The notes under the pieces: generated by a model
The model's input: only the letters and a program-made list of their open reading frames with translations
Database searches by the model: none
Told to the model about the DNA's origin: nothing
Shown: positions 37,198 to 63,734 of the stretch, in pieces
How the letters are laid out: each line of letters opens with the position of its first letter
Position numbering within the stretch: the first letter of the stretch is position 1
Origin: a virus
Lineage: Duplodnaviria > Caudoviricetes
Reading direction: 5' to 3' (one strand)
Virus record (IMG/VR): IMGVR_UViG_3300032307_000764
Location: 64,001-128,000 of that record
Length of the DNA stretch: 64,000 nucleotides
Position numbers and translations under genes: made by a program

Positions 37198-37797
37198 ATG
37201 AAAAATATTCAAGATTACAAAAGATTTTGTCTCAATGAAGCTGAAGAACTAATGTGGACTAGGCATCTTGGTAACAATGCTAACAGTTACGAAGACAGGG
37301 CTAAAAATTACTATAATTTATCTAGCAGTCCTGGTATACTTTCTAAAACACAGAATTTCTTCCAGAAAATGGAAGACAGAATCAACAACATGGCTAGAGT
37401 AGGTAAAGGACTTGCTCAACAAAATAGATCAGGAAGATCGGGTAACTTAGATACTGGATACGAAAATCTATTTGGACTAGTTTCTGTTGTTCCTAATGTT
37501 CTTAAAAGAGTTTTTGGTCCAACTAAATTCGAAATAGCTAAAAAAGCTCCAGCAAAGGATGACGAGGTTAATCTTGAATTCATGAGACACACTAATGAAG
37601 ATTTTGCTAAGAGTGAACTTCCTAACATTAGATCTGAAAAGCAATTAGAAGATAATATCGCTGACCTTTATCAAAAAGGTGAAGTTAAAAAAGGAGAAGT
37701 ACCTGTACTTGATGATATAGCAATGAATAGAATTAATCTATATTATACAAGACAAGAAAACCCAAACCAGCCAATATTCCAACCAAATAATCTATAA
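37198..37797 (+). CDS. Hypothetical protein, putative internal head protein
   Basis: N-terminus MKNIQDYKRFCLNE resembles the T4 capsid-targeting sequence. Confidence 0.55.
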   Translation: MKNIQDYKRFCLNEAEELMWTRHLGNNANSYEDRAKNYYNLSSSPGILSKTQNFFQKMEDRINNMARVGKGLAQQNRSGRSGNLDTGYENLFGLVSVVPNVLKRVFGPTKFEIAKKAPAKDDEVNLEFMRHTNEDFAKSELPNIRSEKQLEDNIADLYQKGEVKKGEVPVLDDIAMNRINLYYTRQENPNQPIFQPNNL

Positions 37798-37799
37798 AA

Positions 37800-38546
37800 A
37801 TGAAAAAATTCTCTTCAATAGTAGAAAAGAAAAAACAAGAATTACACGAAAACCAGGTAATAAACGAGAGAAATCTTTATCTTGACTTTGCAAAGAAATA
37901 CCATAAAAAACATGGTGTATCTGGACCTTTTGATAAAAAATTCCAAGGAGATAAAAAGGCTCAGGAAGAATATATGGAAGGACTAGGTAAGGCTTGGACG
38001 GAGCACAAAGAAAAGAAAGGTATCAAGAATAAGTCTGAAAAGGGTAAGTTTGATTTTGCTAAGAAAAAAATGAACGAATCTAAGGCTTTTGATATGGCTA
38101 AGCAAATGATAGGAGATGGCGGAGAGCCTAACTATCACTTCGTTACGATGTGCGACGACTATCTTTTTGAAAAAGATGGAGAAATGCTAAGATATAGCAA
38201 AGATATGATGGCAGCACCGCTTAAAATCAAAACTACGCCTACTTTAGGAGCTTATACGTTCGGCCCTTTCATGAACATTGAAGAATCTAAAATGTTTGCT
38301 GCTAGTATCGAGTTAGATGAAATCAATGGACCTAGAATGGTTACTATCGAGGACAGAAAAACAGGTGAGGTGTTTACTAAATATTTAACTTGTAAGCTTC
38401 AACCAGTTTGGGATGAACACGAGGAAGAAAACTTTGAGTCTATCGAAGACGAAGACGAAGAAGAATTTGAAGATCCTAATTCAGAGTACACTTACGGTGA
38501 CGAGACTGAGGACGAAGAAACAGAAGACGACGGAGAGGAAGAATAA
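37800..38546 (+). CDS. Hypothetical protein, putative internal head protein with acidic tail
   Basis: MKKFSSIVE start, several (I/L/M)xE sites, very acidic C-terminus. Confidence 0.55.
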   Translation: MKKFSSIVEKKKQELHENQVINERNLYLDFAKKYHKKHGVSGPFDKKFQGDKKAQEEYMEGLGKAWTEHKEKKGIKNKSEKGKFDFAKKKMNESKAFDMAKQMIGDGGEPNYHFVTMCDDYLFEKDGEMLRYSKDMMAAPLKIKTTPTLGAYTFGPFMNIEESKMFAASIELDEINGPRMVTIEDRKTGEVFTKYLTCKLQPVWDEHEEENFESIEDEDEEEFEDPNSEYTYGDETEDEETEDDGEEE

Positions 38547-38548
38547 AA

Positions 38549-38992
38549 ATGTTAACTCCTTCACAAAGCCAAGCTCTTTATCCTGTACTTCAACATTACA
38601 CAGGAACTAAGATAAATTCTATCTCCGATATGGGAGATGGACTTATCTTTAGTACCTCTTGGGGCGAGTCTGGTTTATTGGTTGAGAATAATAAAGGTGA
38701 TTGGGAGATAATAATAGGCCAGGAATTAGTGGATAGAATAGAAAAAGAAGTATTCGAAGCATTAGTTAAACCTGAGACAAAGAGTAACATTGAGGAATAT
38801 ATTAAGATTTTAGATCATTTAGCTAAAGATTCTAAAGTAAGTTATAGATCTAAAGTTTTAGTTTCCCAGATACTTGGTATACTAGAAGAATTTATTTTAA
38901 ACTCTAATTTTGTACCAAAGAAAGAAATAAAGTTTGGACCTTTTTGGATTTTTAGCTATAAAGGAAATAAGTTCATAAACTCATTAAATTAA
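38549..38992 (+). CDS. Hypothetical protein
   Basis: 147-aa ORF tightly packed in the operon. Confidence 0.55.
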   Translation: MLTPSQSQALYPVLQHYTGTKINSISDMGDGLIFSTSWGESGLLVENNKGDWEIIIGQELVDRIEKEVFEALVKPETKSNIEEYIKILDHLAKDSKVSYRSKVLVSQILGILEEFILNSNFVPKKEIKFGPFWIFSYKGNKFINSLN

Positions 38993-38993
38993 A

Positions 38994-62030: not shown

Positions 62031-62032
62031 AC

Positions 62033-62356
62033 ATGACATTTATATTCTATTTACTAGCAGTTTGGGGTCTAACTCATATATTAGTATCGTCTAAGATTTT
62101 TGATGCTCCTAGAAATTGGCTTTTAATATCGTTCCCGTTCTTTGGTGAAATGCTTAACTGTTATCAGTGCACATCATTCTGGACTTCGATGTTTTTATAT
62201 TTCTTTTTTAATGATCTACACATTGATGCTATATCTTTCACTGTTATGAACGTATATAGAATTGGAGCCGATGTTTTCTTATGGGGATTGATTGGATCGG
62301 GTGTTGTTTCTTTCCTGTCTGTAATTATGTCACTTCTAATAAAAAGGAATAAATGA
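62033..62356 (+). CDS. DUF1360-like membrane protein with CxxC
   Basis: LAVWGLTHILV..SKIFDAPR, GEMLNCYQCTSFW; about 3 TM segments. Confidence 0.7.
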   Translation: MTFIFYLLAVWGLTHILVSSKIFDAPRNWLLISFPFFGEMLNCYQCTSFWTSMFLYFFFNDLHIDAISFTVMNVYRIGADVFLWGLIGSGVVSFLSVIMSLLIKRNK

Positions 62357-62357
62357 T

Positions 62358-62365
62358 GATATATA
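62358..62365 (+). promoter_or_regulatory. Putative late promoter GATATATA
   Basis: 4 nt upstream of ATG 62370. Confidence 0.55.
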
Positions 62366-62369
62366 GAAC

Positions 62370-63734
62370 ATGAATAAGAAAGTTCTATCATTCAATAAAT
62401 TTAATGAACAGGTTGACATTTTAGCCGGTTCAACAGGAGCTCCTACACCAGATCCTGCATCAGATACACCAGGAACTCAAAGACCTGAAACAGAAAGGGA
62501 AGCAAAATCAAGAATTGCAACATCGATAGTTAAAGGGCTATTTGGTGATATCCAAGGATTAACTGGTGGTGTCGATGATCAAATCGAAATGACTAAGGAG
62601 GTCAAAGAATCTCTACCTTATAAAGGATGTGGTGCAAGCGAACCTTATCAACTAGAAAAAACACCTATATCTCTTGCTACTATTAAGATACTTTTGAATT
62701 ATCTTCAAGAGAAAAAAGCCGGGGATTATACAAGATCCATAAATGAGCTTAACGAAAAAAGAGCTGTAGTAATTGGTATAAGAAATAAAATAAACATAAA
62801 GAAAGAATCATCCAATCAGGATAGATTCTGTGATGCTTTATATTTTATACCAGGTAATGCTAAGGATGGAACTGAGGGAGCTACTGGTGCAACAGGAGCT
62901 ACTGGAGCTACTGGTGCAAAAGAGAGCATAGATTGGAATAGCATAATTGAACATAATGAGATCTCTACAAATTCTAGGGTTCTTTCTTTCGAAAACTTTT
63001 ATTCTATAAACGAGGAGGAATCTGTTTTTGATAGAATTAAAAAGGTATCTCAAAAGGGAATGGATACGGTAGGAAAGGCTAAATCTTCTTCAGCTACTGG
63101 TGCAGCTACTGGTGCAGCTACTGGTCCGGTACCTCCTGCAAGTTTAGGTGACACTTTTATTCCTTATCAGATTACATCTGTGCCTAGCTTAGCTTATTAT
63201 GGTAAAAAACCTATGAATCCTAAAGGAGTTGGTATTAAAATGCCAGGTGATACGCTTTACATTTTGCAGGAATCAACTCTAGGTCACGGGAAATACAAGA
63301 TGATGGTTGAGGGTGAAAAAATTAAAGTAGGTAGATACCCAATAGGAGTTACTAAATATGAGACTTATAAACCTGCAGAGGTTTACACTGAAAATTGTGG
63401 TATGCAAATACATAGATCCTCTACTAAAGGAGAAGGTATTTGTGTAGGACCTTGGTCAGCAGGATGTCAGGTATTTAGCGATTATGATGAATTTAAGGAT
63501 TTCATTTCTAAGGCAGAAAAGGAATCTATGAATGCTGGTAAATTTATTTATGCTCTTATACAATTAGATGACATTCCGGAAGAAGTGATGAAGTCTGCAA
63601 TGATGGGAATGGTATATTCTCCAAGTCAGGTTTTAGCTTCTAACGAACCAGCAACAGGATCTACAGGACCAGCAACAGAGACTGCACCTAAAGTAAAGGC
63701 AGGGGGATTAAAAAAGCTAGGAAGAATCACTTAA
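62370..63734 (+). CDS. L,D-transpeptidase-fold peptidoglycan-active enzyme with internal low-complexity insertion
   Basis: VVIGIRN, DRFCD, PMNPKG, GMQIHRS...VGPWSAGCQVF (His/Cys catalytic motif); CTS-like start MNKKVLSFNKFNE. Confidence 0.6.
   Translation: MNKKVLSFNKFNEQVDILAGSTGAPTPDPASDTPGTQRPETEREAKSRIATSIVKGLFGDIQGLTGGVDDQIEMTKEVKESLPYKGCGASEPYQLEKTPISLATIKILLNYLQEKKAGDYTRSINELNEKRAVVIGIRNKINIKKESSNQDRFCDALYFIPGNAKDGTEGATGATGATGATGAKESIDWNSIIEHNEISTNSRVLSFENFYSINEEESVFDRIKKVSQKGMDTVGKAKSSSATGAATGAATGPVPPASLGDTFIPYQITSVPSLAYYGKKPMNPKGVGIKMPGDTLYILQESTLGHGKYKMMVEGEKIKVGRYPIGVTKYETYKPAEVYTENCGMQIHRSSTKGEGICVGPWSAGCQVFSDYDEFKDFISKAEKESMNAGKFIYALIQLDDIPEEVMKSAMMGMVYSPSQVLASNEPATGSTGPATETAPKVKAGGLKKLGRIT
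62880..62918 (+). repeat. (Ala-Thr-Gly)4 coding repeat
   Basis: GCTACTGGT GCAACAGGA GCTACTGGA GCTACTGGT GCA. Confidence 0.85.
63093..63125 (+). repeat. 12-nt tandem repeat GCTACTGGTGCA x2.75
   Basis: Encodes ATGA-ATGA-ATG. Confidence 0.85.

Follow-up and report, generated by a model that had tools for sequence, protein, structure and literature searches.

Counterparts of a short N-terminal tag in other phages

The internal proteins of phage T4 are typically small and basic, and in the T4 record the ipII and ipIII products begin with MKTYQEFIAE and the ipI product with MKTFKEFTS. Residues 4 and 7 of the T4 capsid-targeting sequence (CTS) govern targeting whereas residues 8 and 10 govern processing, and targeting does not require cleavage (PMC9026906). 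The hypervariable ip loci of T-even phages encode at least ten Ip types that are recognised by a common signal (as summarised in PMC12373910). A further type of head processing, found in phiKZ, 201phi2-1 and SPN3US, relies on S/A/G-x-Glu sites and mostly long propeptides (111-254 aa) in paralogue families, with no short portable tag (PMC10052503). Here we analyse a DNA stretch of 64,000 nucleotides, hereafter called the window, which comprises bases 64,001-128,000 of the linear 248,191-bp IMG/VR record IMGVR_UViG_3300032307_000764 (Caudoviricetes; 33% GC; ~85% complete by estimate), along with the remainder of this record. Our subject is a 13-residue peptide tag at the N-terminus of many of the encoded proteins, which we judge moderately likely to be a T4-type capsid-targeting propeptide that has been greatly expanded. 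No publication that describes the tag was found.

The consensus sequence of the tag is M-K-H-I-K-L-F-E-Q-F-[ILV]-N-E. A 7-column position-specific scoring matrix (PSSM) trained on the I-x-x-F-x-x-F core of the N-termini was scanned against our own set of 365 open reading frames (ORFs), with the internal match rate serving as the control. At a threshold of 9 bits, there are 38 matches among 5,110 N-terminal positions and 15 among 70,779 internal positions, which is a 35-fold enrichment that reaches 110-fold at 12 bits. Together with eight weaker cases checked by hand, the PSSM matches give a total of 46 tagged ORFs. These represent 15% of the ORFs of the 248-kb genome and are scattered over ~220 kb, with clusters at 144-162 kb and 191-207 kb besides those in the window. 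The second aromatic residue is at position 10 in 27 of the 46 tags and at positions 8-12 in 44. The most conserved columns are F/Y at -3 (38/46) and F/Y at 0 (43/46, the second aromatic), followed by [ILV] and E. A GC content of 33% favours codons for K, I, F and N, and so an AT-rich genome might be expected to generate some resemblance by chance. However, this explanation is refuted by the N-terminal enrichment, by PSSM matches in only 2 of 296 ORFs of the related jumbo phage PTm1, which served as a control, and by conservation of the tag in hundreds of orthologues. We regard a compositional artefact as practically dismissed.

A sequence-only reading of the window had previously listed about twelve tagged genes. 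All 12 N-termini that it reported are present in real ORFs, including one with a GTG start at 48829 on the minus strand. Ten of these fit the main motif, whereas the genes at 37800 (MKKFSSIVE) and 44317 (MKKFSEIKE) carry a weak short form, with an aromatic residue at position 4 and an aliphatic residue at position 7, that lies outside the main motif. The short form is kept in relatives, as MKKFS-x-[IV]-x-E in 17 relatives of the 37800 gene and as MKK[FY]S-x-I-x-E in 21 relatives of the 44317 gene. A tagged adenylate kinase gene at 54393 had been overlooked, and the genome-wide total of 46 is well beyond the original set.

The proposal that a modular tag is attached to unrelated proteins has held up. 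When tags are removed, an all-versus-all BLASTP comparison recovers only one tagged-tagged pair among the 46, and thus the tag is present on ~44 unrelated bodies. The choice among synonymous codons for the conserved K, I, F, F and E residues mirrors genome-wide usage, which speaks against an RNA signal and against copies of one DNA cassette. Selection is on the peptide and not on the DNA. For the AAA_5 ATPase, 120 homologues with 33-96% identity were compared, and 118 of them keep the tag and start M-x-R-I-x-x-F-x-x-F-V-N-E-G. Positions I4, F7, F10, V11, N12, E13 and G14 are as rich in information as the ATPase core, and richer than the 100 residues that come next. Members of the Tad3-like family likewise keep the tag, and adenylate kinase orthologues keep I-x-N-F-x-x-F.

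The tag resembles the T4 CTS in its location at the extreme N-terminus of unrelated carriers and in its aromatic residues at i and i+3, which are followed in some of the tags by aliphatic-x-Glu. Its four most conserved positions have the spacing of T4 CTS residues 4, 7, 8 and 10. The genome also codes, as that of T4 does, for a protease of the gp21 family and a capsid protein of the gp23 type. The T4 cargo proteins IPI-III are anti-defence proteins, and one cargo protein of the present phage is a homologue of the anti-defence protein Tad3. However, the tag is three residues longer than the T4 CTS (MKH + I-K-L-F-E-Q-F-L-N-E) and favours Asn at P2, and there are 46 carriers rather than the 3-4 known for T4. 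In further contrast to T4, the cargo is acidic and includes enzymes of up to 686 aa, ~40% of the tags lack a cut site, and two proteins have internal copies of the tag.

The ip loci of T-even phages are fast-evolving accessory arrays whose members have only the N-terminal signal in common, and in this they are like the clusters of tagged genes reported here. The present case differs in that ~46 carriers reside in one genome of a distant clade, and in that conserved core genes such as that for the MoxR ATPase are tagged as well. There is also some likeness to phiKZ, 201phi2-1 and SPN3US, which carry an S80 protease, a head proteome of ~50 proteins, cleavage after Glu and propeptides thought to target the prohead. 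However, S77 is a better match than S80 for the protease described below, [ILV]-N-E takes the place of S/A/G-x-Glu at the candidate sites, and unrelated bodies carry the tag, a short module of 13 residues. We therefore rejected an assignment of the tagged proteins to the processed head proteins of the phiKZ/SPN3US type.

Head machinery and a candidate maturation site

A 677-aa protease/scaffold protein is encoded ~45 kb upstream of the window. Its first ~225 residues match the T4 gp21 family (PF03420 Peptidase_S77; 38.7 bits with a cut-off of 27; 9.3e-10). The protein also matches the PHROG_207 head maturation protease (2e-37), and its match to S80 (3.3e-8) is poorer than that to S77. When compared with the T4 gp21 structure chain (5JBL), it gives a weak pairwise match (E = 0.13) that spans G-E-L-D-H-P and S-S-R-x-x-G. 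The adjoining gene codes for a gp23-type capsid protein (PF07068 Gp23, 7e-39).

The C-terminal rest of the 677-aa protein is the scaffold part, which consists of 14 tandem units of YSEYLAENLDKNIS. Each unit has a pattern in common with the tag, namely aromatic-x-x-aromatic-aliphatic-x-Glu. The regular expression [FYW]xx[FYW][ILVM]xE is satisfied by all 14 scaffold units, by 15 N-termini and by 17 sites elsewhere, whereas composition would lead one to expect ~16 sites in total. A PSSM was also built from 16 cleavable tags, which were chosen for [ILVM]xE so that part of the pattern is built in. When this matrix is used to score the 66,142 internal 7-mers, the 40 best include 11 scaffold units, and rank 39 would go to the core of the T4 CTS. 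The YSEYLAENLDKNIS unit is nearly invariant down to 40% identity, and so the clade provides no co-variation between tag and scaffold. PTm1 has another scaffold repeat and no tag expansion. This contrast links the type of scaffold repeat with expansion of the tag, but as a single comparison it is only suggestive.

The N-terminal propeptide of the capsid protein carries H-S-[LI]-N-E followed by S or N, and relatives with as little as 30% identity show no variation in it. This [LI]-N-E site is located where T4 gp23 is matured. Sixteen of the 46 tags end in [ILV]NE at most 8 residues from the second aromatic, compared with 0.26 expected, and the protease/scaffold protein contains 9 such triplets (p = 3e-8). 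A hydrophobic-x-Glu sequence is found within 11 residues in 28 of the 46 tags and has the exact T4 spacing in 16. The tag probably terminates in the maturation site used by this clade. The sequence-only reading had likened the tag to a T4 CTS with a site for the prohead protease, and this view gains support from the gp21-family protease, the gp23-type capsid protein, the T4 spacing and the [ILV]-N-E site of the capsid protein.

The clearest evidence, from sequence and a structural model, that the tag may be a modular and removable addition comes from the Tad3 homologue (genome 151,584-152,354; PF25185, 4.5e-21; PDB 9b7d, 2e-35). Its body corresponds to stand-alone Tad3 (PDB 9b7d), which inhibits the type I Thoeris sensor ThsB, whereas a 43-residue N-terminal extension is present only in the homologue. 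Residues 45-249 of the homologue align with residues 3-190 of Tad3, and thus a complete Tad3 is preceded by 43 additional residues. This extension, composed of tag, helix and linker, ends at L41-N42-E43, and the protein continues with G44 where stand-alone Tad3 begins. L41, N42 and E43 are each at least 90% conserved in 62 homologues. In an AlphaFold model with a mean predicted local distance difference test (pLDDT) score of 80, the tag opens a helix at residues 7-28 and the Tad3 fold is predicted from residue 43. Ahead of the first Tad3 helix, a linker modelled with low confidence (residues 33-41, pLDDT <50) is closed by the site. Tad3 binds ThsB via its N-terminal helices (PMC13728456), and so removal of a propeptide at this position would make functional sense.

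We infer a mechanism whose steps are scaffold binding, packaging, cleavage and injection. The amphipathic core I-x-x-F-x-x-F would dock proteins made late onto the scaffold core while the prohead assembles, and the scaffold would be the C-terminal half of the protease gene product with its 14 copies of a like pattern. The gp21-family protease would then cut after the Glu of [ILV]-N-E and free the mature cargo within the head. Proteins whose tags lack a cut site would be targeted and would retain the tag, as under the T4 model. The cargo would finally enter the host together with the DNA. It would include the ThsB-binding, anti-Thoeris Tad3 homologue, wall enzymes with a CHAP domain or of the L,D-transpeptidase (LDT)-like kind, a nucleotidyltransferase, the MoxR ATPase, its DUF2201 partner and ~35 uncharacterised proteins. 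Packaging of the tagged cargo is probable, and its injection into the host may follow. The full proposal is that a lineage with more than 500 uncultured freshwater relatives uses a scaffold-mimicking 13-residue tag to load ~46 proteins into the capsid and to deliver them with the DNA. We advance it tentatively, and would give it somewhat less than an even chance.

The amphipathic, helical character of the motif (model helix 7-28) would also suit a tag that gathers late proteins, by localisation or oligomerisation, at a phage structure distinct from the prohead (a membrane, a scaffold-like condensate, or a factory for assembly or replication), without stable encapsidation or injection. Adenylate kinase and the MoxR ATPase would serve in the cytoplasm, and acidic cargo is compatible with that setting. 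However, the prohead interior is indicated by cut sites of the protease type and by the way in which the tag resembles the scaffold repeat, and a homologue of the ThsB-blocking protein Tad3 seems most useful if it is delivered with the DNA. We consider localisation elsewhere to be quite unlikely.

Putative late motif, cargo and the weight of the evidence

The sequence [GA]ATATATA is found at most 50 nt upstream of 29 of the 46 tagged genes, compared with 26 of 278 untagged genes (odds ratio 16.5, p = 7e-15), and most other tagged genes directly follow a gene that has it. Within the window, the sequence-only reading had assigned a late motif to nine genes and an operon-downstream location to three more. 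The motif is indeed present 11-39 nt upstream of the nine, and the other three are directly downstream. Untagged genes that have the GATATATA-type motif include the protease/capsid operon, scaffold-like genes, tail genes, genes for two Laminin_G fibre-like proteins and an endolysin gene. Near the head genes of relatives, the association of late motif and tag is weak (odds ratio 2.0, p = 0.008) because most genes there bear the motif anyway.

A copy of GATATATA is also present inside the protease gene (L002:1873-1942; genome 18,873-18,942), ~70 nt ahead of the in-frame codon for Met226 (MDNNFVTAEEL). Because this intragenic copy is conserved in 55 of 73 relatives, a nested, scaffold-only product that starts at Met226 is likely. 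Nested scaffold products include those of lambda (C/Nu3) and herpesvirus (UL26/UL26.5).

An array at 163-191 kb (L007, L008) comprises ~50 small single-gene cassettes with near-identical Bacteroidota-type promoters (TTTG ... TAtaTTAGC/TTTG). The cassettes are presumably early genes. None of the 54 ORFs of this array is tagged (p = 1.7e-4), and so the motif is not equally common among these early-cassette genes, which agrees with the sequence-only reading.

At least 14 genes genome-wide have 4 nt between GATATATA and the start codon (window examples: 44595-44608, 47920-47933 and 62359-62372). If the motif is a -10-like element, such late messages would be leaderless or nearly so. The conserved N-terminus might then act in the translation or stability of late messages, and many of these messages would lack a leader as the motif ends 4 nt before the ATG. 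In keeping with this idea, the motif is located 11 nt ahead of the start codon in at least 14 genes, and the 5' coding region is A/T-rich. However, synonymous codons at the conserved positions vary as they do genome-wide, and it is aromatic and aliphatic side chains at a fixed spacing that are conserved. Furthermore, untagged late genes (protease, fibres and endolysin) have the same motif without the peptide, and the tag also occurs internally, between linkers, in two proteins. A role in translation is therefore very improbable.

Few of the tagged bodies can be named from Pfam matches. These are the MoxR-type AAA_5 ATPase, a DUF2201_N metallopeptidase-like protein, adenylate kinase, Tad3 and a protein with a CHAP domain, and there are weak matches to a nucleotidyltransferase and to an OmpA-like domain. 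No Pfam match was found for ~35 tagged bodies. Thus, two domain labels of the sequence-only reading, AAA+ ATPase and DUF2201 metallopeptidase-like, are backed by Pfam, whereas its winged helix-turn-helix label is unconfirmed. Its LDT-like label for the 62370 protein corresponds only to an H-x15-S-A-G-C motif, as in L,D-transpeptidases, and its ParB-like label only to a weak Atlas lead. Atlas feature searches on three uncharacterised cargo proteins produced sub-threshold leads only. The tagged bodies range from 75 to 686 aa, with a median of 198 aa.

Several observations dampen our enthusiasm for a capsid-targeting function. The number of carriers, at 46 or 15% of ORFs, is far above that of any CTS set known to us. 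The tagged bodies are acidic (median pI 5.2), and 18 of the 46 tags are without hydrophobic-x-Glu within 11 residues. Adenylate kinase, whose P-loop starts at residue 17, would be an odd capsid cargo. Its gene resides in a nucleotide-metabolism operon and has no late motif, and its tag is kept in orthologues. When a PSSM is built from all 46 tags (positions -3 to +3), neither the scaffold repeats nor the T4 CTS are ranked high. Only the matrix from the cleavable subset ranks them, and thus the resemblance between tag and scaffold is at the level of pattern. The 14 scaffold repeats, moreover, are one duplicated unit and amount to approximately one independent observation. The designation "late" is taken from the genes that share GATATATA, and no homologue of the T4 late sigma factor gp55 was found in the genome. 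A complete sigma-70-family protein is encoded.

Some of these same features would be expected if the tag were read not by the prohead but by another phage factor, as a recognition peptide or as a leader in the manner of the leaders of ribosomally synthesised and post-translationally modified peptides. Such a factor could act as a chaperone or unfoldase, for which the conserved, tagged MoxR ATPase is a candidate, or it could be a modifying enzyme or a RimK-like ATP-grasp/protease. A RimK-like ATP-grasp domain fused to a Zn_protease-like domain is encoded on the minus strand at genome 28,769-30,250 (L002:11769-13250), where the gene has the late motif and adjoins three tagged genes, and this protein could modify or process peptides. 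The many tags without a cut site and the presence of the tag on a housekeeping kinase also fit this idea. However, the 248-kb record yields no match to the radical-SAM family PF04055 (controls matched in 14 of 14 genomes), an absence that is not absolute for a record that is ~85% complete. The tagged genes are spread over ~220 kb rather than linked to one enzyme, and a leader role leaves both the T4 4/7/8/10 spacing and the [ILV]NE sequence common to the capsid propeptide and the protease/scaffold unexplained. We find a leader role rather doubtful. More generally, the competing explanations explain less than capsid targeting does, since none accounts for the cut-site triplet common to the capsid propeptide and the scaffold.

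Should the tag function as its T4 counterpart does, the tagged genes would constitute a sequence-only list of proteins carried into the cell by freshwater Bacteroidota phages, a group that is large, abundant and uncultured, and the injected "first-minute" proteome of a whole clade would be readable from sequence. This list, with its many uncharacterised members and at least one anti-defence homologue, would be a focused catalogue of candidates for counter-defence and takeover functions. The tag together with [ILV]-N-E would serve as a portable, self-removing packaging signal. In addition, the capsid-targeting principle of T4 would be ancient, common to very distant T4-like jumbo phages and scalable more than ten-fold. 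The Tad3 homologue, a known stand-alone protein with a putative removable propeptide, offers a clean test system in which protease domain, tag and substrate could all be recombinant, with no need for phage culture.

Features of the window and of the wider record

The left part of the window contains baseplate and tail genes and a helicase gene. In the studied span (Table 1), tagged genes are interspersed with genes for ribonucleotide reductase, topoisomerase and a DnaJ-like protein.

Table 1. Tagged genes, short-form candidates and associated features, in window coordinates; the residue after the candidate cut site is given where it was noted.
Coordinates	Strand	Length	Feature	Tag	Motif upstream	Remarks
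37198..37797	+	199 aa	Tagged gene	MKNIQDYKRFCLNE, then A	GATATATA at 37169-37176	No family match
37800..38546	+	248 aa	Weak short-form candidate	MKKFSSIVE		Operon-downstream of 37198; outside main PSSM
41005..41694	+	229 aa	Tagged DUF2201_N metallopeptidase-like	MRRILGWSEFKLFE	GATATATA at 40983-40990	PF13203, 1.5e-22
41703..42764	+		Untagged partner gene			phrog_1314 profile 162-391, the second half of the PHROG of 41005
42796..44313	+	505 aa	Tagged MoxR-like AAA_5 ATPase	MKRIYNFNEFVNE, then G	Two GATATATA at 42756-42773	PF07728
44317..44589	+	90 aa	Weak short-form candidate	MKKFSEIKE		
44606..45139	+	177 aa	Tagged gene	MRHIKLFEQFLNE, then D	GATATATA at 44594-44601	Consensus tag, 20 bits
45132..45449	+	105 aa	Tagged gene	MNNNILSYNEFITE, then S		Operon-downstream
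47931..48527	+	198 aa	Tagged gene	MNHLLRFENYKPIYE	AATATATA at 47919-47926	
48524..48829	-	~101 aa	Tagged gene	(M)KKILTYKLFE	AATATATA on minus strand, 48841-48834	Starts from GTG at 48829, with the motif 11 nt ahead
54393..54986	+		Tagged adenylate kinase	MKIKNFKEFGS	No late motif	PF00406, 3e-37; 16 bits; without cut site; in nucleotide-metabolism operon
56279..56761	+	160 aa	Tagged gene	MQILRFSDFINE, then Q	GATATATA at 56255-56262	
59077..59823	+	248 aa	Tagged gene	MILRLNNFVVE, then Q	GATATATA at 59064-59071	Weak ParB_N lead only
62370..63734	+	454 aa	Tagged gene	MNKKVLSFNKFNE, then Q	GATATATA at 62358-62365	phrog_3000; C-terminal LDT-like H-x15-SAGC motif
62979..63014	+		Internal tag of 62370 ORF	VLSFENFYSINE		Residues 204-215; 15.6 bits; flanked by Gly/Ala/Thr-rich linkers

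The genes from 41005 to 44313 form a three-gene module that comprises the DUF2201_N gene, a separate gene for the second PHROG half and the MoxR AAA_5 ATPase gene. Only the first and third of these carry the tag.

The second, internal tag that had been reported for the 62370 ORF is present as listed, and it is one of two such copies in the genome. The other is in an 863-aa protein whose gene adjoins the protease gene in the head module (L001:15653-18244; genome 15,653-18,244), and in both proteins the copy lies between linkers. The internal tag of the 863-aa protein, VLSFEDFYSVIEE, is homologous to that of the 62370 gene. A 56-aa segment around the 62370 copy has 54% identity to the internal tag region of the larger protein. 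The 863-aa protein has a long Gly/Ala-rich hydrophobic segment and Gly-Thr linkers, and no family match was found for it. We consider it a candidate for an internal protein of the head or an ejection protein, perhaps with activity on membranes.

The record belongs to an uncultured clade whose DNA is present in lake and freshwater metagenomes, with representation in metagenome runs only. One queried stretch of 5.7 kb had no nucleotide match in a phage collection. Identity of the capsid protein to its counterparts is 43% in an uncultured 462-kb phage, 39% in the Prevotella Lak phages and 33% in Tenacibaculum phage PTm1. A single RNA run accounts for 7% of sampled words and is available as contigs only, and so it cannot show transcript starts or timing. 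The host is probably a member of the Bacteroidota, as judged from a type IX secretion system (T9SS) C-terminal sorting domain on one protein and from early promoters of the Bacteroidota TTTG / TAnnTTTG type. In a check for membership of published bS21 phage clades, bS21 was absent from the record. The protease/scaffold protein has 538 relatives in IMG/VR. Among the 80 IMG/VR neighbourhoods that were fetched, 3-9% of the ORFs near the head genes are tagged, and this holds for each class of protease identity down to 40%.

Some proteins outside the count of 46 have N-termini that recall the tag. A ferritin/Dps-like protein (PF00210, 1e-21) is encoded on the minus strand at genome 213,630-214,226 (L010:630-1226) with the late motif upstream. 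It starts METFDKF, a mini-tag of T4 length with aromatic residues at positions 4 and 7. Within a cluster of tagged genes, five tandem paralogues of 123-151 aa are encoded on the minus strand at genome 157,734-159,790 (L006:12734-14790), none of which is counted as tagged. Four of the five begin MT[RQ]EEFI, a likeness that exists because they are paralogues, and the fifth (genome 159,371-159,790) begins otherwise.

A second common peptide is located at the extreme C-terminus of 9 proteins and has the form G-x-x-[IL]-L-x-R-[FLV]-G followed by 1-5 residues. Among relatives, the neighbourhoods of the head genes yielded no copy. Loci in the present genome include L006:5350-5910, L006:10183-10716, L006:10731-11798, L006:11810-12718 and L008:16206-17267 (genome 150-157 kb and 195 kb). 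Five of the nine carriers are also tagged at the N-terminus, and one carrier is in the early array.

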